DNA of 64,000 nt from the IMG/VR virus record IMGVR_UViG_3300027751_000015, positions 1,813 through 65,812 of that record, one strand, 5' to 3'. Position 1 is the first letter of the stretch. Each line of letters opens with the position of its first letter. The notes beneath the pieces are model-generated. The model did no database searches. It saw only the letters and a program-made list of their open reading frames with translations, and was not told where the DNA came from. Made by a program: the position numbers and the translations under genes. This stretch comes from a virus. This document shows positions 12,434 to 49,452 of this stretch, one piece after another.

Positions 12434-12874
12434 ATGGTTAATAAATGGGATAAGCGATATCTTGATCTAGCATCTGGAGTCGCTAATTGGTCGAAAGATC
12501 CTTCATCTAAAATCGGTGCGATTGCTGTAGGATCAAAAGGACAAGTGCTTGCTCAAGGCTACAACGGATTTCCAAGAGGAATTAGTGATAGTTTTGATCG
12601 ATATGCAAACAAAGATGTTAAGTATAAGTTTGTAGTTCATGCTGAAATGAACTGCATATACAATGCTACATATAATGGTGTATCACTTGACGGTGCAACT
12701 CTCTATGTTCATGGATTACCTGTCTGCTCTGATTGCGCAAAGGGTATTATTCAGGTTGGAATTAAGAGAGTTGTTATGCCGCTAGCAGAATACCCACAAC
12801 GATGGATCGAGTCGTTTGCATATTCATCGGAACTCTTTAGTGAAGCTGGTGTTGATTATGAGTTTATAGAATGA
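12434..12874 (+). CDS. cd: dCMP deaminase
   Basis: WSKDPS.KIGA, GYNGFPRG, HAEMN and PVCSDCAK zinc motifs; AAAGG SD before ATG 12434. Confidence 0.93.
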   Translation: MVNKWDKRYLDLASGVANWSKDPSSKIGAIAVGSKGQVLAQGYNGFPRGISDSFDRYANKDVKYKFVVHAEMNCIYNATYNGVSLDGATLYVHGLPVCSDCAKGIIQVGIKRVVMPLAEYPQRWIESFAYSSELFSEAGVDYEFIE

Positions 12875-13806
12875 TAGTCGGAACCTTTAGTAAAATACCT
12901 AAGAAGACATCAAGCCACAGTTATGGCTATGCCAGAACTTGGTCAGAAAATCTTAATGTACCCATTGACCATACGAATGGAAAGCACAAAGATGTTTATC
13001 TTTTGCCTGGTGCTAATTTTGGTGGTACTATTAATCTTATGGGTGGGTTTAACGAAGTTATTAAGGTTTGGATCGATAACTTGCTCGCTTCAGAAACAAT
13101 AACAGTACTGGACGGCTCTCCAGTTGACTACGGTGCGCAGTTAAAGAAGCGAAAAGACGTAACTGACAAAGATTGGTGCGATGCAATAACTGAGAAGCTT
13201 TCTGAAGCTAAGCCTCTTGTAGGCAGTGATTTACCACACGAATGGTTAGCAATCGGTGACAGTCACGTGTGCGCATATGCACCGAAGAATAGTAGTGTAG
13301 TCAAGCAAGATGGTACTACATTGTTTGGCCAAATCAATGAAGATTTTGCATACATCAGGTCTCATATCAAACCGCATCATAAAGGTGTTACCATATCTCT
13401 TGGCAATATTGATGTACGTCACCATTTATGCAGAGTAGAAACTAGCATCTATAAAATGGTCGAAGCATATAGCGATTTCGGAAAGAGTCTTGGCATTGAA
13501 GTAGAATACGCGGTGCCGTGGCCAATTGAATTCGAAGGCCGTAAACTTCCTCAGACCGGGTATTACAAGAAGCAACCATTTTGGGGCTCAAGAGATGAAA
13601 GAATGAAAGCAGCTTGGGATATGGAAGGCTGTATGAAAATATATGAAATGAAATTAGTAAAACCACCTCAAGCTTGGTATGATATGAATGAAGAAAAATA
13701 TGCTATAGATAAAATGGAAAGACCCCAATCAGTACATCTTAATCCCATGTTTTATCGCCGTATGAATTGGGGTGAGAGCGAAAACACACTAGAAAGTTTT
13801 ATGTAA
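12871..13806 (+). CDS. Hypothetical protein with SGNH/GDSL-hydrolase-like C-terminal region
   Basis: AIGDSH and SLGNIDVRHH blocks; late HLNP. Confidence 0.55.
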   Translation: MIVGTFSKIPKKTSSHSYGYARTWSENLNVPIDHTNGKHKDVYLLPGANFGGTINLMGGFNEVIKVWIDNLLASETITVLDGSPVDYGAQLKKRKDVTDKDWCDAITEKLSEAKPLVGSDLPHEWLAIGDSHVCAYAPKNSSVVKQDGTTLFGQINEDFAYIRSHIKPHHKGVTISLGNIDVRHHLCRVETSIYKMVEAYSDFGKSLGIEVEYAVPWPIEFEGRKLPQTGYYKKQPFWGSRDERMKAAWDMEGCMKIYEMKLVKPPQAWYDMNEEKYAIDKMERPQSVHLNPMFYRRMNWGESENTLESFM

Positions 13807-14876
13807 TGGAATTAGAAAGACGACCAAATTACGATTGTTATGTGGATTATTTCTGGCCTCGTTCAAAATGGCTTGAAGAGAATTGCCTAATCGGCGATGC
13901 TGATTATCTTGGACCTGAAGCTGACGAACACGTGAACGACGAGTTAATGCAAAATATCCCTGCTTACAACTGTGTGTCTAGAACGTATGAAGGATTCAAT
14001 AACGTAAACCAAGATTTAAATCACGGCACTAATCAAGTAGTATTTAAGAAAAGGCCGAAAGAGGTACAAGAACGAGTTCAGAAATATGTGACAAATAAAT
14101 GGACTCTTCGAGAATATGTGTTTGCTTATTATACGCATCGTAGTACTGGATCAGGATTTTATGCTGGCAAACCATGGCACGGATATCATCATAGCATAGT
14201 TAGTCATTTCGGAATGTATGAAACTGCAGATGAGATGGCGAATCTTATGAAGCAGTGGAAAAAAGCTGGTAAAAAGATGTTTTCTACTATTGGTAACCAG
14301 AACCCTACTCCGAAGAAAGGTATGAATCTTCCTGAACATATAACGAGTTTTGGTTTAGAACTAATGGGCGAACTGACAGAACATCTTAAAGAAAACTATA
14401 ATGCAGGTAATCCACCGCTTGAACAAAAGAGTTTAACTGATAGACTTAACCAGAAAAATATAGACAACGGGATTCGTCGTTGGAACTTTCCATATGCACA
14501 AGCCATTGCAGACATTGCTACGTATCATCCACAATATGTAGATCCTAATAGTAGTTTATATTGTGGTAATAATGCTAGACAAGCAATCGAACAAATGTTT
14601 CGAAAGCCAAAAGGGATGAGTCAAGTAGAATATCACGATCGAGCACTAGCAGATCTTACAGAAAACCTTGGTACAAATGCTGTGGCACACGAAGATACCT
14701 TATGCATCTATATCAGGTTTTTAAATAATCTCGATCGTTCTGGCCGAGGTCTTAAAAATGCTTCAGGTTATTATATGATGGATAAAAATGATAAGCCTAT
14801 GTATCCTGATATTTGGCGCCCTGAAGCGCTTGAAGCAAAACAACAAAAAGCAACTTTAGCGGAGTTTCTAGTATGA
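13806..14876 (+). CDS. Putative DNA base-hypermodification transferase (aGPT-PPlase/amino acid:DNA transferase-like, HhH-glycosylase fold)
   Basis: Blocks DELMQ...YNCVSR.YEG, FPYAQAIADI, YCGNNARQAI and EDTLCIYIRF parallel the D..LQ..FCNV.RE, GPGA..GL and E..LCE..KY blocks of that family as I recall them. Genomic context fits. Confidence 0.5.
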   Translation: MELERRPNYDCYVDYFWPRSKWLEENCLIGDADYLGPEADEHVNDELMQNIPAYNCVSRTYEGFNNVNQDLNHGTNQVVFKKRPKEVQERVQKYVTNKWTLREYVFAYYTHRSTGSGFYAGKPWHGYHHSIVSHFGMYETADEMANLMKQWKKAGKKMFSTIGNQNPTPKKGMNLPEHITSFGLELMGELTEHLKENYNAGNPPLEQKSLTDRLNQKNIDNGIRRWNFPYAQAIADIATYHPQYVDPNSSLYCGNNARQAIEQMFRKPKGMSQVEYHDRALADLTENLGTNAVAHEDTLCIYIRFLNNLDRSGRGLKNASGYYMMDKNDKPMYPDIWRPEALEAKQQKATLAEFLV

Positions 14877-15010
14877 CAGAAAAATCATTTGCTCAGATAG
14901 TGGCAGAATATAGACTGCATAGAAGATACATTCTACAAGCATTAAAGCAGTTTAAATAAATTTATTTTACAAGTTGTTGTTTTTAAACGATTTCGATCGG
15001 CGCTTTTTTG

Positions 15011-15039
15011 TGTACATTGCTTTTAATATGCTGTAGGAT
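15011..15039 (+). promoter_or_regulatory. Early promoter TGTACA-N17-TAGGAT
   Basis: Same cassette as 8807 and 52888 (CGGCGC-T-run-GTGTACATT). Confidence 0.75.
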
Positions 15040-15064
15040 GGTATTATCAAATGGAGATAATAAC

Positions 15065-15466
15065 ATGATTTTTACAGTTTGGCAAATTCAATACTCTAAA
15101 GCAGATATCGCAGCCATCAATGCTGGCGAAACTAACGCTAAGCGTGAAGCTAAAACAGAGATGAACTTTGATTTTAGCGGAAATAACATTTCTGGTATCG
15201 CTGATCAAGCTCTTACAGATGGTCTTTATACTCATGTTTCTGACATTCGTGCTGAAACTCCTGAGCATTGCTTTGAAATCGGTAACATTGGCCCTGAGTC
15301 AGCGATTACGCGTTTCTCACGTATGTCTTCACTTTCAGTCGGTGATATCATCGTTGATGTAGAAGGTAATGTAATGGTTGTAGCTAACTATGGTTTTGTT
15401 GCAATCGGATTTAAGCCTGAAATGTCAGCCGCTAATTTAGTTTATAATATGGAGGAAGTAGCGTAA
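15065..15466 (+). CDS. Hypothetical early protein
   Basis: GGAG SD before ATG 15065; contains SLSVGDII motif. Confidence 0.7.
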   Translation: MIFTVWQIQYSKADIAAINAGETNAKREAKTEMNFDFSGNNISGIADQALTDGLYTHVSDIRAETPEHCFEIGNIGPESAITRFSRMSSLSVGDIIVDVEGNVMVVANYGFVAIGFKPEMSAANLVYNMEEVA

Positions 15467-15696
15467 TGATTATTGTAAATGATATTCAAGATGCATTGAT
15501 GATGAGAAAGAAATTGATGAGCATTGTTCGTCGTTCTCATAATTTTGGCCATAGTCGTGCCACTGTTTTAATTGAACTGCTTGATATTGTTGACGATCTT
15601 CAGCAAAACATTGAAAGGATGGAAGCTGAGATGGAACTTCAACATGATCTCTGGAGGACTGAACTTACAATGGAGGAACCTTCTAATGCAGCGTAA
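15466..15696 (+). CDS. Hypothetical protein
   Basis: GGAGG SD; coupled start. Confidence 0.6.
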   Translation: MIIVNDIQDALMMRKKLMSIVRRSHNFGHSRATVLIELLDIVDDLQQNIERMEAEMELQHDLWRTELTMEEPSNAA

Positions 15697-15901
15697 AGGT
15701 AAATCACATAAAGCGGCCATGGGAAACGATGGCCGTGTTGCTCTGCGTGAAGTTATTGATTTCATGAGTGAATGCGCCGGAGTTTTAGAACTTGAAGGCG
15801 AGGAAAAATCTGCGTTTTATTTCGAGCAGATTGCAGAGTTTTTAACTGAAAATCCCTATAAGGGTTTAAAAGAACACGCAGGTCGTGTTCTAGGACTGTA
15901 A
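15686..15901 (+). CDS. Hypothetical protein
   Basis: GGAGG SD before ATG 15686. Confidence 0.6.
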   Translation: MQRKGKSHKAAMGNDGRVALREVIDFMSECAGVLELEGEEKSAFYFEQIAEFLTENPYKGLKEHAGRVLGL

Positions 15902-15905
15902 GGTT

Positions 15906-15913
15906 TATAAATA
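15906..15913 (+). promoter_or_regulatory. T4-type late promoter TATAAATA
   Basis: Exact consensus just upstream of the cell wall hydrolase. Confidence 0.8.
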
Positions 15914-15917
15914 TCCT

Positions 15918-16403
15918 ATGTCAAGAACTTTAAACATAACAAGCGGATTATTAACTATGTCAGTACTAACTGGGGCACTTGTCATAACTCTTTCTATGGG
16001 TGGTCAACCCGATATAGATCCTAAAAGCCAAAATTGTTTGGCGATGAATATATATCACGAGGCTCGCGGCGAGGTCATTGAAGGCCAAATCGCTGTTGCC
16101 CATGTTACCATGAATAGAGTAGAGCATAAGGAATGGCCTAATAGTATATGCGATGTAGTCTACCAACCAAAGCAGTTTAGTTGGACGTTTATGATTAAAG
16201 ATCAGACGCCCAAAGAAAACAAATCGTGGAAGCAAGCTCGGGCTATTGCCAGAGATGTGATGATAGGAAACGTAGATGATCCTACAAAGGGAGCTACATT
16301 TTATCACGCTACGTATGTGAATCCGGTGTGGGCAGATCAAATGGAAGTAAGTAAAATAATTGATAAACACGTGTTTTATGTGTGGGACGGCACTTGGGAT
16401 TAG
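15918..16403 (+). CDS. SleB-like cell wall hydrolase with N-terminal hydrophobic anchor
   Basis: CLAMNIYHEARGE, GQIAVAHVTMNRV, ICDVVYQ..QFSW and GATFYHA. Confidence 0.9.
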   Translation: MSRTLNITSGLLTMSVLTGALVITLSMGGQPDIDPKSQNCLAMNIYHEARGEVIEGQIAVAHVTMNRVEHKEWPNSICDVVYQPKQFSWTFMIKDQTPKENKSWKQARAIARDVMIGNVDDPTKGATFYHATYVNPVWADQMEVSKIIDKHVFYVWDGTWD

Positions 16404-16567
16404 TAAAAGCATCTAGTCCTTGTACTCAGATATGTAAAATTGATGCATTTACTGGTACGTGCATAGGGTGTAAACGCACTTCTCAGGAGATCACTGAGTG
16501 GTCTTCTTATAGTGAAGAACAAAGAATAAATATAATGGAGAAGCTTGAATTATGGCAAAAGAAATAA
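16382..16567 (+). CDS. DUF1289-like small Cys-rich protein
   Basis: SPCTQICKID..TGTCIGCKRT..EI..W. Start uncertain. Confidence 0.75.
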   Translation: MGRHLGLVKASSPCTQICKIDAFTGTCIGCKRTSQEITEWSSYSEEQRINIMEKLELWQKK

Positions 16568-16848
16568 GTAATGTAGAATATAAATTTAACGAAGGCGCAT
16601 TGATTAATGAGTTTCAAGCGTATATCGATGCTACATATGATGGGCATTACGCCACAAATAAATTTCAATCAACAGAAGTAATCATTGAACGTGGTCATGG
16701 CACAGGTTTTTGCATGGGAAATGTCGACAAGTATTCAAATCGTTATGGGAAAAAAGGTAGTCGTGATGACGCCCGTAAAGATTTAATGAAAGTTCTCCAC
16801 TATGCCCTCATCCAACTCTATATCCACGATAGTGAAAAGGAAGAATAA
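16552..16848 (+). CDS. DUF3310-like phage protein
   Basis: HY...GFCMGNV.KY..RYGKKG...DL.K..HY pattern. Confidence 0.7.
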   Translation: MAKEISNVEYKFNEGALINEFQAYIDATYDGHYATNKFQSTEVIIERGHGTGFCMGNVDKYSNRYGKKGSRDDARKDLMKVLHYALIQLYIHDSEKEE

Positions 16849-16917
16849 GTATTACGCTTATACCGAGAACGGAAGTGTAATAATTATATCACAGGACAGA
16901 TACATTGTTGAAAGCTA

Positions 16918-16946
16918 TGTACAAAGTATTGGCTATAAAGTAATAT
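16918..16946 (+). promoter_or_regulatory. Promoter TGTACA-N17-TAATAT upstream of tmRNA
   Basis: 17-nt spacer; predicted start just before the acceptor piece. Confidence 0.55.
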
Positions 16947-16957
16947 ATAAGATGTAA

Positions 16958-17168
16958 GCGTTAATAACGGATGTATGGACCTCGGGGCAGTACCGAGCAG
17001 CTCCACCACAAGTACATAAGGTGTATTTCTGATGGGGCTGAACTAGGATCGACATGTATTCAAGTTTACAAACACAAATGCAAACGACAATTTTGCACCA
17101 TCTGGATTTGCCTTAGCGGCATGATCACAGGGGGTTGGCCACTTACCTAGCAACAGAAAAGTGGCAAC
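16958..17168 (+). ncRNA. ssrA: Circularly permuted two-piece tmRNA (alphaproteobacterial type)
   Basis: T-arm CTCGG-GGCAGTA-CCGAG (16981-16997), then CAGCTCC-A-CCA (16998-17008) and a 25-nt intervening segment. GGGGCTG (17034-17040) pairs with it, giving G3:U70, followed by AACTAGGATCGAC. Tag ORF 17080-17124 encodes ANDNFAPSGFALAA*. Outer ends are approximate. Confidence 0.93.
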
Positions 17169-17204
17169 TTTTATAATGTTTAATTTAATCTAGGAAAAAA
17201 GAAA

Positions 17205-17597
17205 ATGAAAATCGCAGCAATCGCAGCAGCCGCTTTAGTAACGGCAACATCAGTCTCAGCCAATGAGATCGGTGGAACAGGCATCACTTGGGGTGTAACA
17301 TCAGAAGCAGCATACACAATTAACGATGCTGCAGGTAACGCAGTAGATGATTTCGGTGTAAAGGTAACTCCTGAAATCGGTTATTCAATGTTCGGTATTG
17401 GCTTGTCAGCTGATATGGACTTGCCAGTTTATAACAATGAAGAGTTTCAATTGAGCAACGCGTTTGACGACCCAAAAGTCAATCTTGGTGCCACATATGA
17501 AGTGTTTGGCGGCTTTGAGTTGTTCGGTGAAACAACTTGGGATTTTGACGCATCAGACAATGTAGCTACTAAAGTAGGTGCTACTTTCGCCTTCTGA
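17205..17597 (+). CDS. Small outer-membrane beta-barrel-like protein
   Basis: Signal peptide (MKIAAIAAAALVTATSVSA), alternating beta-strand pattern, C-terminal ...VGATFAF aromatic BAM-type end. Confidence 0.7.
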   Translation: MKIAAIAAAALVTATSVSANEIGGTGITWGVTSEAAYTINDAAGNAVDDFGVKVTPEIGYSMFGIGLSADMDLPVYNNEEFQLSNAFDDPKVNLGATYEVFGGFELFGETTWDFDASDNVATKVGATFAF

Positions 17598-17605
17598 TAT
17601 AAATA
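17598..17605 (+). promoter_or_regulatory. T4-type late promoter TATAAATA
   Basis: Exact consensus immediately after the OMP stop. Confidence 0.7.
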
Positions 17606-17634
17606 CCATAGGGTCACTTACTTAATAAGTGCGC

Positions 17635-17664
17635 GGGGGGCCATGGTGAGCCCCCCTTTTTTTT
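17635..17664 (+). terminator. Rho-independent terminator
   Basis: GGGGGG-N10-CCCCCC followed by T8. Confidence 0.75.
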
Positions 17665-17682
17665 ATGAGAAAGGACTATACT

Positions 17683-18039
17683 ATGAAAAAACTATTATTG
17701 GCCTTAGGATTCATCACTGCTTGTGCTCCAGCGCACGCTGATATGTTACAAATAAATGTGCCATGCGATCCATCGCCCGAAGTAATGAGAATAATGATAC
17801 AGTATAAGAACTCTTTATTGCTTAGTGGAACAGGTACAATATCTGCTAAAAATGGAAAGACATTTACTTCCGAAGCTGGAATATTCTTAAACCAAGACAC
17901 TGGTACTTTAGCTGTTGTCTTATCTTTTCCCAATGGAGACAAGCCTCCAATGTCATGCTTAATTATTGCTGGAGCAGAGTGGGAGCCATATGCTGGACCT
18001 CAGCCGTGGGATAAAATAAAAACAAAAGAAGATCTATAA
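17683..18039 (+). CDS. Secreted hypothetical protein
   Basis: AAGGA SD; MKKLLLALGFITACAPAHA signal peptide. Confidence 0.7.
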   Translation: MKKLLLALGFITACAPAHADMLQINVPCDPSPEVMRIMIQYKNSLLLSGTGTISAKNGKTFTSEAGIFLNQDTGTLAVVLSFPNGDKPPMSCLIIAGAEWEPYAGPQPWDKIKTKEDL

Positions 18040-18043
18040 GGTA

Positions 18044-18051
18044 TATAAATA
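18044..18051 (+). promoter_or_regulatory. T4-type late promoter TATAAATA
   Basis: Exact consensus ahead of the secreted-protein operon. Confidence 0.8.
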
Positions 18052-18083
18052 CTGTATGACTTACAATGATTGGTGGTATTTAA

Positions 18084-18674
18084 ATGTATAAAAAGTTGCA
18101 TAGATTATTTTTGTTAATGGCATTAAGTTTGTTTACGCTATTGATAGTTGCTATTCAGGTTAAAGCCCAAGATGCAGCAGAATGTCCTGTCGGGTATGTC
18201 TGCACATTATCAGGGACTGATTCCAATATAACAACTGATGGTCAAATGACCACAACCATAAAACAACCTCCTCCTTCTGCGATTGCGCCACAATTTAGTG
18301 CAGGTAATAATTCTGATCTGTGTACTATCGGAGCTTCTGCTTCAGTACAAACTCAGATTTTAGGCATATCTGCAGGAGGCACTTATACTGAAGAGAATTG
18401 TAAAAGATTAAAAAATGCAAAAGTCTTATATGATATGGGAATGAAAGTGGCTGCGGTATCAACTATGTGTCAAGATGAAAACGTGTTTAAGGCAATGATG
18501 AATGCTGGTACGCCATGCCCGTATAATGGTTTAATCGGTGATGCTGCTAAGTTGGGTTGGGAAACTCACGTTGAAGAAACTGAAAAAGAACTTAATTTGA
18601 TGGGACCTATAGATGCTGAAAAAGCTGCTCCTGCCGTTAGCGCTGGTATTATCGCCCTCTTACTCTTACTCTGA
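18084..18674 (+). CDS. Secreted Cys-containing hypothetical protein
   Basis: Signal peptide (VKA-QD), several Cys and a C-terminal hydrophobic tail. Confidence 0.75.
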   Translation: MYKKLHRLFLLMALSLFTLLIVAIQVKAQDAAECPVGYVCTLSGTDSNITTDGQMTTTIKQPPPSAIAPQFSAGNNSDLCTIGASASVQTQILGISAGGTYTEENCKRLKNAKVLYDMGMKVAAVSTMCQDENVFKAMMNAGTPCPYNGLIGDAAKLGWETHVEETEKELNLMGPIDAEKAAPAVSAGIIALLLLL

Positions 18675-19521
18675 AAGTATTGCTCCGTACTTTGGGTATA
18701 CTGGAAATGCTATAACGGACCAATCTCTCGCTTGGTCTATGCCAAACATATTGCCTGATCCATCTGGATTAGATATACAGAATGTAATATACAGTTATAA
18801 GATACAGAAAGAAACTGGTGAATGGGTAACAGTACATGTGCAGAATGAAAATGCTAATGCCACTGGTTATATTTTTAGAGAGACTGACGAGTGGAAACCA
18901 GGATCAGTAGCCGGTACTGGAATTAGTAAAGCAGTTCCAGTAGGCAATTTACCCAGAGCATTATGGGGAGAGGGAAGCATAGATGTAGATGGCAACGGAT
19001 CAGTATACGATGCAAGTATAGTATATACGTATAGAGTCGATCCTTGTTTTAATCCGCAGTTTAATACTAACTGCCCAGGATATGTAGAGCCAATCCCTGA
19101 CATACCAGAAGTTGGCTTAGAAGATGTTTATGATGTATTCGATGACGATAATGTTAACATGGAACGAAATAAAACAATCGAACAAGATAAGATAAATAAG
19201 GCTAAAGCAAAAGAAGAAGATGAAGAAGAAGAGGAAGAGCGTAAAAGAAGGTACAGACTTGAAAAGGTTTTGTCAGATCTGCAAGCTTCTCAACTTTTAG
19301 CTGAGAATTCTATAATAGAACAAATGAATAACAATATGCAAAACGAGATAAATAAGACATATCTAGTAATGAAAATACCAGGCGGAGAATATAAAGATAG
19401 CGTGGTACTGGCAGATTCAAAGTTGCCAGACTCAAAGAATGGATTACGTAATGGACTAGCCCAACAGTTATTGCACAACCAGATGGTTGAGATGCAATAT
19501 CAAATAAACGAAGAGAACTAA
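18613..19521 (+). CDS. Secreted hypothetical protein (beta-rich N-half, acidic/helical C-half)
   Basis: Signal peptide; VDPCFNPQFNTNCPGY linker; poly-E tract. Confidence 0.75.
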   Translation: MLKKLLLPLALVLSPSYSYSESIAPYFGYTGNAITDQSLAWSMPNILPDPSGLDIQNVIYSYKIQKETGEWVTVHVQNENANATGYIFRETDEWKPGSVAGTGISKAVPVGNLPRALWGEGSIDVDGNGSVYDASIVYTYRVDPCFNPQFNTNCPGYVEPIPDIPEVGLEDVYDVFDDDNVNMERNKTIEQDKINKAKAKEEDEEEEEERKRRYRLEKVLSDLQASQLLAENSIIEQMNNNMQNEINKTYLVMKIPGGEYKDSVVLADSKLPDSKNGLRNGLAQQLLHNQMVEMQYQINEEN

Positions 19522-19532
19522 GGAAACATAAT

Positions 19533-20057
19533 ATGAATATGTTTAAAATTAAGACTAGTCTGTTTGCACTATCTACTATGGTTGTGGCAAGTCAGGCTTT
19601 AGCACAACAAGAAGGATCAGTTCCTATTAACGGCACTGTTCAATCGCGTTGTGTAATTCAAGCAGATACCGCAGGAACATACGGCAACCCTAATGCGTAT
19701 GAATTAAATACAGCCGCAACAGCTGGTGGGAACAACGCTGTAATTCGCGTTGATGTAACACTGGCCGATTCATATTATGTTAATATTACTGCACCATCGT
19801 CATTTTCAAACAGCCCAACTTTACCTGACACTGTAACTTGGACTGGAGATACAACTGTTAAAACGCTATCAGATGCGACAGGAATGAGTGGGTACGAAAC
19901 TGGTAAGCAGGAACTAGGAATGGTAGATAAGTATGACCTAACTGTTGTTGGTTCTACATGGTTTGAAACAGAGTCAAAAGCTACTCTTGGAGGTTCAAGA
20001 GCATTTCCCGGCGGAAACTACACTGCATTAGTAGAAGCTGAGTGTATTGCAAAGTAG
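19533..20057 (+). CDS. Secreted fimbrial-subunit-like protein
   Basis: Signal peptide (ALA-QQ), INGTVQSRCVI N-strand, C-terminal GGNYTALVEAEC; Thr/Gly/Ala-rich. Confidence 0.55.
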   Translation: MNMFKIKTSLFALSTMVVASQALAQQEGSVPINGTVQSRCVIQADTAGTYGNPNAYELNTAATAGGNNAVIRVDVTLADSYYVNITAPSSFSNSPTLPDTVTWTGDTTVKTLSDATGMSGYETGKQELGMVDKYDLTVVGSTWFETESKATLGGSRAFPGGNYTALVEAECIAK

Positions 20058-20060
20058 GAA

Positions 20061-20468
20061 ATGACTATGCTACGTTATGGTTTATTCTCAGTCTTTATAG
20101 CTATTTTTTTAACATGCGCTTTAAGTGTTAAGGCCCATGAGATGGTTCCAACATACCCAAAATTGGAACCATCTCATATACAAGGGCTATATAAAACAAA
20201 GGTAACAATATTCAATAAAAGACCAGAAGTTGAGTATTATGAAATTGGGGTATTTACAGAAGATTGGGAATCAATACCGTTTGTTTCTACATACAAAATC
20301 TTTCCAGTCCCCTTTTTAAGCACAGTAACAAACGAGCTGTTTATACGTAATATTGATAGAAAAAAAGTAAGGTATATATGCTCTAAATCGAAACTGCGTA
20401 GGTCATATGAAACGCGAACTATAGTGTCTTCTAGGATTTGCTCAAAGATAAAAAGGCTAGGTGAATGA
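20061..20468 (+). CDS. Secreted protein, pilus-chaperone-like
   Basis: Signal peptide (VKA-HE); MVP...TIFN...YEIGVFTEDW pattern reminiscent of PapD-like N-domains. Confidence 0.45.
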   Translation: MTMLRYGLFSVFIAIFLTCALSVKAHEMVPTYPKLEPSHIQGLYKTKVTIFNKRPEVEYYEIGVFTEDWESIPFVSTYKIFPVPFLSTVTNELFIRNIDRKKVRYICSKSKLRRSYETRTIVSSRICSKIKRLGE

Positions 20469-20890
20469 AAAAGTGTATTATATTATTAACCTTATCAATG
20501 TTTCCTATTACAGCATTAGCAGATAACAGTGGGATTGGACTAACACTACCTGGAGCTTCTGTCTCATATGGTAGTGATAGCATCAAAGCTGGAGACTTAA
20601 ACTGCTCAAATTCTATTGGCGGCGCCACAAATTTTGAGTTTGGTATAACAGGCGTTATCGATAACTATAGTAGTCCATTCAACTCTCCAGATTACGGTAA
20701 CACTGAAAAGGATGTTGGAGTATATGCTAGAATAGTTATACCACTCGATAAGCCTAAAGAAAGAATTAATTGTAACAGCTTGTATCAATTAGAGCTGAGA
20801 AAAAAAAGATTAGAAGTGCTAAAGCTGCAACAAGAACTGGAAGCGTTAAGACGTTTAAACAATTCTGAAGCAAGCACATTTGAGAACTAG
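20465..20890 (+). CDS. Secreted hypothetical protein
   Basis: Signal peptide (ALA-DN), beta-rich core and C-terminal coiled coil. Confidence 0.7.
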   Translation: MKKCIILLTLSMFPITALADNSGIGLTLPGASVSYGSDSIKAGDLNCSNSIGGATNFEFGITGVIDNYSSPFNSPDYGNTEKDVGVYARIVIPLDKPKERINCNSLYQLELRKKRLEVLKLQQELEALRRLNNSEASTFEN

Positions 20891-20900
20891 GAGTTAATAA

Positions 20901-21479
20901 ATGTCAGAGCTAGAATTTGGAGGAGTTAAGTTTAAAGGCGGCAAGATGTTTGCTGTTCTTACGGCGCTATCAACGTTAGGTGGCGCAGCTTGGGGAGGCT
21001 TTGAGTTCTACAATGATTATAGAAATATGAAAGAGATTGTAGAAAATATTGATGTAGATTCTATTGCAGCCGAAAACGAAAAAGTTATTCTTAGAATGGA
21101 AGAAAATATGGTTCGTATTAACGAGGCCATTGAATATACTCGTGATATTAAAACTGGTCTTAGAGATGATATACTTGGTATTGAAAAGCAAGTGGATCGC
21201 ACAGAAGATGAGTTGCGGGAAAGCGAGCAAACGACAAGAGAGATTGTACAGAATGCAGAAGAGCGCTTTGAAAACAAGCGAGACGCATTATCTAATGATT
21301 ATGACACAAAGGCGAATAGTTTAAGAAACTCAAATAACAGTCGTATGAACGATCTAGAAACTAAAGTAGAACGCGACTTAGAATCACTGCGAGCGATGAT
21401 CGAGAGAGACATGAGAGAGCTTGATACTCTATTAAATGATAAATTACAAAGAGCCCTAAATAATCCACTAGCAAACTAA
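20901..21479 (+). CDS. Membrane-anchored coiled-coil protein
   Basis: N-terminal TM (FAVLTALSTLGGAAWGGF) followed by long heptads. Confidence 0.7.
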   Translation: MSELEFGGVKFKGGKMFAVLTALSTLGGAAWGGFEFYNDYRNMKEIVENIDVDSIAAENEKVILRMEENMVRINEAIEYTRDIKTGLRDDILGIEKQVDRTEDELRESEQTTREIVQNAEERFENKRDALSNDYDTKANSLRNSNNSRMNDLETKVERDLESLRAMIERDMRELDTLLNDKLQRALNNPLAN

Positions 21480-45692: not shown

Positions 45693-46311
45693 TAAACTTT
45701 TTATAACTGGTTGCGATTCAAATACTAAGTGGATGCTACCATGGTTTAAAGAAAAATTCTATAAGCATATGCCAAATGCGCATCTCGAAGTGTTTGATTT
45801 TGACACCAGGTTTTTAGGATGCCAGACATGGTTTAAAAAGCCTTCATCCATGATTGCAGCTTCTGGTATGGCTCGTAGTGTTTGCTGGCTAGATACTGAC
45901 TGCGAAATCAGATCTAACATTGAAGATATTTTTAACTATGCAGAACATAATAAATTAAGCTTAGTAGAAGATGTTCCGTGGACAAAACGCAGAGGCGAAA
46001 CGTGGCACAACAGCGGAGTGGTGGTATTTAAAGGACTACCTTCTATTTTAGCAAATTGGGCTAAAGTCTGTAAGATAAAAAGTAGTGAGTCGACTCACCC
46101 AATGTATGGTGACCAAGATATACTTCACGAACTAGTTGGCCAAAATTTAAATAGAATTGTAAGCATAATAGATATCCCAAGAGGTTATAACGTACTACGC
46201 CTAGATCTATTAGATAATACCAACCCTCCAAATATAAAGGTTATGCACTGGACTGGAGCTAAAGGTAAAGCAGAAATTAAAAAGCAAATGATTAGTGAGA
46301 CAATTAAATGA
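45670..46311 (+). CDS. Glycosyltransferase (GT-A)
   Basis: WFKKP, WLDTD, NSGVV, GDQDIL, YN..R and HWTG.KGK. Confidence 0.8.
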   Translation: MKIMKLYNKLFITGCDSNTKWMLPWFKEKFYKHMPNAHLEVFDFDTRFLGCQTWFKKPSSMIAASGMARSVCWLDTDCEIRSNIEDIFNYAEHNKLSLVEDVPWTKRRGETWHNSGVVVFKGLPSILANWAKVCKIKSSESTHPMYGDQDILHELVGQNLNRIVSIIDIPRGYNVLRLDLLDNTNPPNIKVMHWTGAKGKAEIKKQMISETIK

Positions 46312-46907
46312 GTAAAGTAGCGCATCTTATAGGAAATGGTGATAATGCTTCAATGTATAAACCGGCCAAAGGAATAAAGATAACATGTAATTTGCCTCCG
46401 TTTACTGTGCGTAATACTTATGCCACTACAATTGTTGATTTTAAAATGTGTAAGGCTATTACTGAAGGTAGTGTTGTTATACCTGGAGATTGGATTATGG
46501 GCTATAGGCCATCTATCTGGTATGATAAAAATGAAGGTAATTTTAAAATGAGATTTGGTTCTCAAATAAGAGAATTCTATAAGGTACTACCTGAGTATGC
46601 TAAGAATTACACAAACCTAAATTGCGGCCATTTCGCAGCTCACTATATTGCAAATAAAATAAAAGCTACAGAGATCCATTTGTATGGTTTCGATTCGCTT
46701 TTTGATATGAACCTAAGAAGCAGTACAGATTTTGTTCTTAACTCAGACCGCGGTGCAACAAATAACGTCAGATTAAACGATAATTGGAGGCCAATCTGGC
46801 AAGGGATTTTTAATGAGTTTAGCGATACACAATTTGTTTTATATCACAAGCACAATAATATTAAATTTAGTGTTCCAAAAAATGTTGAAATAAGAACAAA
46901 AAGTTAA
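46308..46907 (+). CDS. Glycosyltransferase/sialyltransferase-like protein
   Basis: LIGNG, CN, NCGHFA and IHLYGFD pattern. Confidence 0.55.
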   Translation: MSKVAHLIGNGDNASMYKPAKGIKITCNLPPFTVRNTYATTIVDFKMCKAITEGSVVIPGDWIMGYRPSIWYDKNEGNFKMRFGSQIREFYKVLPEYAKNYTNLNCGHFAAHYIANKIKATEIHLYGFDSLFDMNLRSSTDFVLNSDRGATNNVRLNDNWRPIWQGIFNEFSDTQFVLYHKHNNIKFSVPKNVEIRTKS

Positions 46908-49210: not shown

Positions 49211-49287
49211 GCTCCGATAGCTCAATTGGTTAGAGCGCCCCGCTCATAACGGGTCGGTTGCAGGTTCGAGTCCTGCTGGGAGCACCA
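49211..49287 (+). tRNA. tRNA with CAT anticodon (Ile2 or elongator Met)
   Basis: Cloverleaf with CTCATAA loop, GTTCGAGTCC T-loop and encoded CCA; G:G mismatch in acceptor stem. Confidence 0.85.
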
Positions 49288-49292
49288 TAAAT

Positions 49293-49369
49293 GAATACGT
49301 AGCTCAGCTGGATAGAGCAAGTGCCTTCTAAGCACTAGGTCGAGGGTTCGAATCCTTCCGTGTTCGCCA
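49293..49369 (+). tRNA. tRNA-Arg(TCT)
   Basis: GAATACG/CGTGTTC acceptor, AGTGC-CTTCTAA-GCACT anticodon arm and CCA. Confidence 0.93.
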
Positions 49370-49375
49370 AATAAA

Positions 49376-49452
49376 CTCGGTGTAGCGCAGTCTGGTAGCG
49401 CGCCTGCTTTGGGAGCAGGATGTCAGAGGTTCGAATCCTTTCATCGAGACCA
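49376..49452 (+). tRNA. tRNA-Pro(TGG)
   Basis: CTCGGTG/CATCGAG acceptor, CCTGC-TTTGGGA-GCAGG anticodon arm and CCA. Confidence 0.93.

Follow-up and report, generated by a model that had tools for sequence, protein, structure and literature searches.

The evidence supports a phage-borne, circularly permuted, alpha-type tmRNA gene with an intact tag, carried without smpB, in the stretch of viral DNA analyzed here (64,000 nucleotides, positions 1,813 to 65,812 of IMG/VR record IMGVR_UViG_3300027751_000015; referred to as the window). New is the reduced form of this RNA, which lacks pseudoknot PK1, has a short helix 2, and belongs to a large family that ARAGORN mostly misses. Judged from its sequence, the gene most likely encodes a functional two-piece tmRNA of alphaproteobacterial ancestry that would perform trans-translation by means of host factors.

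A permuted alpha-type tmRNA gene

The whole window was searched with the models of Rfam release 15, and two tmRNA models matched its + strand above their gathering thresholds. RF04321 (tmRNA_permuted) matched positions 16956-17124 with 83 bits (gathering threshold, 47; E = 2e-14), and RF01849 (alpha_tmRNA) matched positions 16914-17169 with 74.7 bits (gathering threshold, 50; E = 2e-18), the latter over 256 nt compared to a consensus of 355 positions. The gene has the permuted order, in which the 3' tRNA-like half with its CCA is followed by a spacer and then by the 5' half, starting with GGGG. An earlier sequence-only reading of this DNA had proposed a two-piece permuted tmRNA; every element that it listed was found in its place, and both covariance models bear the proposal out. 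The features, all on the + strand, are as follows.

16954 to 17008, +: acceptor piece, ~55 nt (Rfam alignments, RNAalifold, and pair counts in sets of 17 and 77 sequences)
16954-16959, +: 5' strand of P2b, GUAAGC, in the acceptor piece
16960-16968, +: conserved loop of the acceptor piece
16969-16977, +: 5' strand of P2a, in the acceptor piece, followed by GAC
16981-16997, +: T-arm, CTCGG/GGCAGTA/CCGAG, with T-loop GGCAGUA
16998-17004, +: 3' strand of the acceptor stem, CAGCTCC, in the acceptor piece
17005 and 17006-17008, +: discriminator A and encoded CCA, the 3' end of the acceptor piece
17009 to 17033, +: spacer between the two pieces, 25 nt, presumably excised (sequence)
17010-17017 with 17021-17028, +: spacer hairpin, 8-bp stem and 3-nt loop (MFE fold, RNAalifold)
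17034 to 17169, +: coding piece, ~136 nt (Rfam alignments, RNAalifold, folds, pair counts)
17034-17040, +: 5' strand of the acceptor stem, GGGGCUG (GGGGCTG in DNA), pairing with CAGCTCC
17041-17052, +: D-loop analogue, in the coding piece
17046-17053, +: GGATCGAC (sequence)
17053-17061, +: 3' strand of P2a, in the coding piece
17064-17069, +: 3' strand of P2b, GUUUAC, in the coding piece
17070-17079, +: linker, 10 unpaired nt between P2b and the resume codon
17080-17121, +: tag ANDNFAPSGFALAA, beginning with resume codon GCA at 17080; stop codon TGA at 17122-17124
17109-17112 with 17118-17121, +: helix H5, inside the tag frame
17132 to 17165, +: equivalent of PK2, the pseudoknot 3' of the tag (covariation; matches the 3' end of RF01849)
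17132-17135 (GGGU) with 17145-17148 (ACCU), +: PK2 stem 2
17138-17144 with 17159-17165, +: PK2 stem 1
Within the coding piece, +: conserved loop of PK2, AGCAACAGAA

A 7-bp acceptor stem joins the two pieces, and together with the discriminator A it carries alanine identity. The G3:U70 determinant that the sequence-only reading had pointed out is G17036:U17002, and it is invariant in all 77 short-form relatives described below. Also present are a T-loop of the alpha type, GGCnGUA, and the D-analogue AGGAUCGAC. The tag frame has a GCA resume codon, an ANDN start, an LAA end, a stop codon, and conservation at the peptide level. Downstream of it, at positions 17132-17165, lies a pseudoknot with the conserved loop ...GCAACAGAA, both stems of which covary. 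The hairpin proposed for the 25-nt spacer was recovered as an 8-bp stem in the MFE fold.

Loss of PK1 and shortening of helix 2

Coding pieces of two-piece tmRNAs typically contain PK1 and PK2 (PMC3985003). In the window gene, the G1-to-resume-codon distance measures 46 nt, made up of the acceptor strand (7 nt), D-analogue (12 nt), P2a (9 nt), 2 unpaired nt, P2b (6 nt), and the linker (10 nt). This distance is 46 to 50 nt throughout the short-form family, and it is 82 to 118 nt in all 46 parsable alpha-type genes from genome assemblies. PK1 therefore cannot fit in the window gene, in which only the 10 unpaired nt at 17070-17079 separate P2b from the resume codon, and helix 2 is shortened as well; the sequence-only reading had pointed out neither. 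The long phage forms, those of Melnitz and HTVC008M among them, contain an additional covarying hairpin just before the resume codon (UUGGC/GCCAA, UGAUC/GAUCA, or UUGAC/GUCAA); the gene in L097 is another relative with PK1. In E. coli tagging, PK1 is the sole required pseudoknot, yet it can be replaced by a hairpin (PMC3968760); the window RNA has neither PK1 nor a substitute hairpin before its resume codon. Since PK1 is required for tagging in E. coli (PMC3968760), its absence counts against the reading of this gene as a working tmRNA.

We nonetheless lean toward the view that the short-form family, which is apparently confined to phages and lacks PK1 and part of helix 2, is fully functional in tagging. 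If so, the family is a natural experiment showing that the stretch from helix 2 to the resume codon can do without any structured element. The short form would then be a natural minimal tmRNA: apart from the tRNA-like domain (TLD) and the tag, it contains a short helix 2, the linker of 10 nt, H5, and a single pseudoknot. This minimal form is under clear selection, which makes it relevant to the old problem of PK1 function, and its small size suits it to structural and functional studies.

Selection on RNA pairing and on the tag peptide

The region 16954-17170 folds with a z score of -3.28, and none of 200 shuffled sequences folded as well. Its MFE fold recovered the acceptor stem, T-arm, both helix 2 segments, spacer hairpin, H5, and the 3' hairpin. 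The predicted energy of the two-piece duplex is -58.0 kcal/mol, compared to -46.6 kcal/mol for the two pieces as separate monomers. Alignments of 9 and 17 genes, together with RNAalifold, revealed compensatory changes in helix 2 (P2a and P2b), in the acceptor stem and T-arm, and in the spacer stem, H5, and 3' hairpin.

Pairing was then counted helix by helix in the 77 distinct short-form sequences with the spacer removed, and the counts were compared with 500 shuffles and with slid registers. The resulting values were as follows.

Acceptor stem: 100% paired; shuffle mean 0.87, maximum 0.90
T-arm: 100% paired; shuffle mean 0.71, maximum 0.77
P2b: 100% paired; shuffle mean 0.98, maximum 0.99
P2a: 88% paired; shuffle mean 0.73, maximum 0.76
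PK2 stem 1: 90% paired; shuffle mean 0.71, maximum 0.74
PK2 stem 2: 99% paired; shuffle mean 0.89, maximum 0.92

Pairing in PK2 stem 2, PK2 stem 1, and P2a each exceeded all 500 shuffles as well as the slid registers, in which pairing fell to 0.26 to 0.60; the shuffle counts are not probabilities, because the 77 sequences are kin. All seven acceptor-stem pairs form in 77 of 77 relatives. Double (compensatory) changes were found at two acceptor-stem pairs, three T-arm pairs, and six pairs of PK2 stem 1, and one pair of PK2 stem 2 is UA in 32 sequences and CG in 32 others. Many independent double changes across the helices are thus clear.

The tag is conserved as a peptide. Among 15 distinct 14-codon tags, pN/pS was 0.16, and the variable sites were distributed over codon positions 1, 2, and 3 as 3, 4, and 10. 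Tag positions 1 to 8 and 11 to 14 are nearly invariant. The third bases of alanine codons 11 and 13 covary synonymously, keeping H5 paired (UA in 38 sequences, CG in 24, GC in 6, and AU in 6). These data show purifying selection both on RNA pairing and on the tag peptide.

A short-form family that ARAGORN mostly misses

A pattern scan for the alpha-type TLD returned at least 119 IMG/VR contigs, and a scan for the short architecture returned at least 118. At least 109 contigs, representing 77 distinct sequences, combine a TLD with a tag and a 5' acceptor strand that matches. When the gene was compared by blastn with 50,697 phage records, there was no match; its relatives were instead recovered with pattern scans and covariance models. 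Among the tags, which number at least 109, 80 of 109 begin with ANDNFAPSG.

The locus recurs in the same order in many independent contigs, with flanking proteins that are 50 to 90% identical. One contig, L049, is colinear with window positions 12871-21479, and most of its flanking proteins are 78 to 91% identical to those of the window, the rest being lower. In L049, L077, L008, L097, L067, L053, L088, L050, and others, the tmRNA is immediately preceded by the DUF3310 gene. These flanking proteins mark the locus as a stable component of a phage lineage.

In the window, ARAGORN reported three tRNAs (49211-49452) and no tmRNA, which we read as a failure of the detector and not as evidence against the gene. 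In a first test set, the program missed the window gene and all eight short forms and found five of eight long forms. Across the 77 short-form loci, ARAGORN 1.2.41 called a tmRNA in seven, with the right tag in five and a wrong tag in two. The published frequency of phage tmRNA genes, 2.3% of isolate genomes with 53 two-piece forms (PMC9004378), is probably too low, since it rests on ARAGORN. Marine T4-like phages therefore probably carry this gene more often than that frequency says, and if the short forms are what we take them to be, ARAGORN-based censuses of phage tmRNA substantially undercount it.

Comparison with known tmRNAs

The sequence-only reading had implied that a phage two-piece tmRNA is new. 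That does not hold, since the kind is already in print: Buchholz et al. (2022) described alpha-type two-piece tmRNAs in the OM43 myophage Melnitz and in pelagimyophages (PMC9004378), and we found them again in Melnitz and HTVC008M. In that study, permuted tmRNAs occurred in 17 of 47 related contigs, and ARAGORN detected tmRNA in 402 of 18,146 phage genomes; of 133 unique phage forms, 53 were two-piece, 50 of these from marine or aquatic phages (PMC9004378). The tmRNA database holds 79 phage sequences (PMC11915505), and older lists of phage tmRNAs include those of mycobacteriophages and Bacillus phage G (PMC4131195). Simply as a phage-borne two-piece tmRNA, the window gene adds one more T4-like marine phage to the published list.

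RF04321 matched Melnitz with 113 bits and HTVC008M with 91 bits; the ssrA genes lie at MZ577097 positions 46013-46345 and NC_020484 positions 145161-145370, and the tags are ANDNYVPVDYALAA and ANFNEYALAA, respectively. Both are alpha-type permuted tmRNAs of marine T4-like myoviruses without smpB, and both share with the window gene the TLD, G3:U70, the PK2 loop motif AACAGAA, and a tag ending in ALAA. However, Melnitz and HTVC008M keep a segment of ~35 to 40 nt comprising PK1/extended helix 2 that the window gene lacks, so that G1 and the resume codon are ~80 to 95 nt apart in the long forms, these two included, compared to 46 nt in the window. ARAGORN detects both of these genes but not that of the window, and blastn found no similarity between the window gene and either of them. 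The location differs too. In Melnitz and HTVC008M, DUF3310 is followed by the gp45 sliding-clamp gene, whereas in the window it is followed by the tmRNA; the position of the tmRNA therefore differs between related phages. In Phage C48C1, DUF3310 is followed by a hypothetical gene and tRNA-Asp. A glutamine (glnA-type) riboswitch lies 3' of ssrA in Melnitz and is common but not defining (PMC9004378). None was found in window positions 16400-17700, in which Rfam gave, besides the tmRNA, three chance-level matches at E <= 10.

Cellular alpha two-piece tmRNAs (RF01849) resemble the window gene in the order of acceptor piece, spacer, and coding piece, and they share with it the T-loop GGCnGUA, the D-analogue AGGAUCGAC, an ANDN... 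tag, and a PK2 with a conserved loop. Their coding piece normally contains both PK1 and PK2 (PMC3985003), whereas that of the window has no PK1. For the two-piece tmRNA of Caulobacter crescentus, function has been demonstrated (Keiler et al. 2000, cited in PMC3985003). The tmRNAs of mycobacteriophages (Bxz1 group) and Bacillus phage G are, like that of the window, phage borne and without smpB (PMC4131195). They are one-piece, unpermuted, and of another bacterial lineage, in contrast to the permuted, alpha-type window gene.

Phage context, promoter-like site, and absence of smpB

The neighborhood of the gene contains the following features, all on the + strand.

15918-16403, +: cell-wall hydrolase gene
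16552 to 16848, +: DUF3310 protein, 98 aa, directly upstream of the tmRNA (Pfam PF11753; tblastn synteny)
16918 to 16946, +: promoter-like site, TGTACA (16918-16923), N17, TAATAT (16941-16946) (sequence)
17205-17597, +: 130-aa open reading frame downstream (ORF list)
17635-17656, +: first terminator-like hairpin 3' of the tmRNA, 7 G-C pairs plus a T-run

Phage genes thus flank the tmRNA within ~100 nt. The source record is 69,472 nt long, ~35% complete according to CheckV, and has a T4-like gene set (UvsX, gp41-type helicase, gp32-type SSB, RNR, and exonuclease). Its nearest record is Phage C48C1, with a gp41 that is 68% identical, followed by cyanomyoviruses and Melnitz at ~60%; HTVC008M is among the DUF3310 matches, at 56%. 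C48C1, HTVC008M, and Melnitz all have Kyanoviridae in their taxonomy line. A scan of Phage C48C1 with RF04321 gave no permuted tmRNA, and we found no publication on this phage.

The TGTACA-N17-TAATAT site that the sequence-only reading had seen upstream of the gene is present at 16918-16946. Transcription is predicted to start at ~16953-16954, ~7 nt past the -10 element, which is the first base of P2b, so that the acceptor piece would need no 5' trimming. A generic sigma-70 scan left the site below threshold and unlisted. The pattern TGTACA-N17-TAnnnT occurs 13 times in the window compared to an expectation of 1.02, and 12 of the 13 sites are on the + (gene) strand. Relatives have TTTACA or TTGACA plus TAAATA at an equal distance. 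The pattern sites span positions 7802-57490 (e.g., 7802, 15011, 16918, 22080, and 55281), and at several of them TTGCTT lies right behind the first hexamer, an arrangement that recalls the T4 MotA-box middle promoters.

The first strong terminator-like hairpin lies behind the 130-aa open reading frame, and the tmRNA precursor may therefore be cotranscribed with this frame. Its product has a hydrophobic, signal-peptide-like N terminus. A run of open reading frames at 18084-21479 that is conserved in L049, L105, L020, and L097 had no Pfam match at E <= 0.01; its identity with the curli-type module of pelagimyophages thus received no confirmation from Pfam at that threshold. The three tRNAs of the window (Met-CAT, Arg-TCT, and Pro-TGG, at 49211-49452) form a cluster with spacings of 5 to 6 nt.

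The sequence-only reading had found no smpB in the window, and this result extends to the whole 69.5-kb record (CheckV, ~35% complete) and to five related records. No SmpB was found in two complete isolate genomes and one complete IMG/VR record of tmRNA-bearing relatives, which suggests that use of host SmpB is the norm for the group.

Tag distribution and host

The sequence-only reading took the alpha-type RNA to point to an alphaproteobacterial host. This conclusion does not follow, as Melnitz infects the gammaproteobacterial OM43 clade and its ssrA is nonetheless of the alpha type (PMC9004378). The type of the RNA therefore marks the ancestry of the gene and not the present host, and tmRNA type alone cannot name the host of a phage.

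Comparison of the tag with those of candidate hosts pointed to no host either: a string coding for ANDNFAPSG was found in 0 of 185,579 species-representative genomes. A broader scan for ANDNFAP returned diverse Alphaproteobacteria with 12-aa tags, as well as some MAG contigs resembling misbinned phage. When the gene was compared by BLAST with 401 sampled alphaproteobacterial genomes, the matches were essentially to the TLD only, at ~70 to 76% identity, with a few short stretches of up to 96%. Taken together, the absence of ANDNFAPSG and the restriction of the BLAST matches to the TLD place the short form on viral contigs only, in the data searched. MAG G003, labeled Verrucomicrobiales, contains four alpha-type permuted tmRNAs on contigs C240, C192, C75, and C47 (L239, L241, L242, and L244), and MAGs labeled Methanobacteriota archaeon and Bacteroidota contain one each (L149/L237 and L134/L238). 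These are probably misbinned phage contigs.

Proposed function and alternative explanations

If the gene works as a tmRNA, the phage promoter at 16918-16946 would start transcription at ~16954. Host tRNA-processing enzymes may then excise the stem-closed 25-nt spacer, with an RNase P cut 5' of G17034 and 3' trimming that would end at the encoded CCA. The expected products are an acceptor piece of ~55 nt and a coding piece of ~136 nt, joined by the acceptor stem, P2a, and P2b. Host AlaRS would charge this RNA through G3:U70 and A73, and host SmpB, on which the RNA presumably depends, would bring it with EF-Tu to stalled ribosomes. Translation would resume at GCA 17080 and add ANDNFAPSGFALAA, the ALAA end of which is predicted to act as a ClpXP/ClpAP-type degron. 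A likely benefit is that host ribosomes would be kept free and truncated products recycled as a T4-like infection shuts off and degrades host nucleic acids. That the phage RNA replaces a host tmRNA that is cleaved or saturated, or alters proteolysis, as the sequence-only reading suggested, is speculation.

A working tmRNA could also have been selected for a different role, in which the phage-specific tag redirects proteolysis or adaptor recognition instead of raising the capacity for rescue; its aim could be to recycle the amino acids of host proteins or to evade a host adaptor. A comparable idea has been raised for Melnitz (PMC9004378). The distribution of ANDNFAPSG, absent from all 185,579 species-representative genomes yet present in 80 of 109 listed tags of the phage family, fits such a role, as does the near invariance of tag positions 1 to 8 and 11 to 14. 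However, an ALAA C terminus is the usual determinant for ClpX/ClpA (PMC3968760), ANDNFAP- is a common start of alphaproteobacterial tags, and nothing distinguishes this tag functionally. We consider this explanation unlikely.

Somewhat less likely still is an inhibitor or decoy, whose tRNA-like domain would titrate host SmpB or block host trans-translation without selection for tagging; such a molecule would resemble the TLD-only RNA of mycobacteriophage DS6A. The lack of PK1, which E. coli tagging needs (PMC3968760), and of a phage smpB agrees with this model; in addition, phages with TLD-only forms are known, and tmRNA is inhibited by a molecule of a similar kind (PMC4131195, PMC11915505). 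A decoy would need neither tag, H5, nor PK2, and it is for this reason hard to square with the data: the tag peptide is under strong purifying selection (pN/pS, 0.16, with mostly third-position changes), and conservation with covariation extends to the resume-codon context, H5, and PK2. The DS6A RNA consists of a TLD only and has no tag frame (PMC4131195), whereas the window gene has an intact and selected one.

It is highly improbable that the gene is nonfunctional passenger DNA, be it a piece of host ssrA picked up where a prophage attaches, an artifact of chimeric assembly, or a pseudogene in decay. Such a reading could appeal to the frequent use of ssrA for integration, with fragments of it in prophages (PMC9004378, PMC4131195), and to the many IMG/VR matches to the TLD pattern that have no recognizable tag in a simple parse. 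Here, however, both pieces are complete, the genome is T4-like, no integrase is present in the record (no tyrosine integrase in 69.5 kb), the locus order recurs in many independent contigs with flanking proteins 50 to 90% identical, compensatory changes are kept in every helix, and the 401 alphaproteobacterial genomes match essentially the TLD only, at ~70 to 76% identity. Covariation and synteny largely refute an attP remnant, a chimera, and a pseudogene.

Variation of the spacer

Across the family, the spacer ranges in length from 5 to 244 nt, and its stem is kept with compensatory changes. The long spacers (L008, L082, L005, L051, L059, L067, L036, and L010) contain a small open reading frame after a Shine-Dalgarno-like GGA/GGAG, and a 63-aa frame of this kind is conserved between L008 and L082. 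The 25-nt spacer of the window resembles an unoccupied version of this insertion site.
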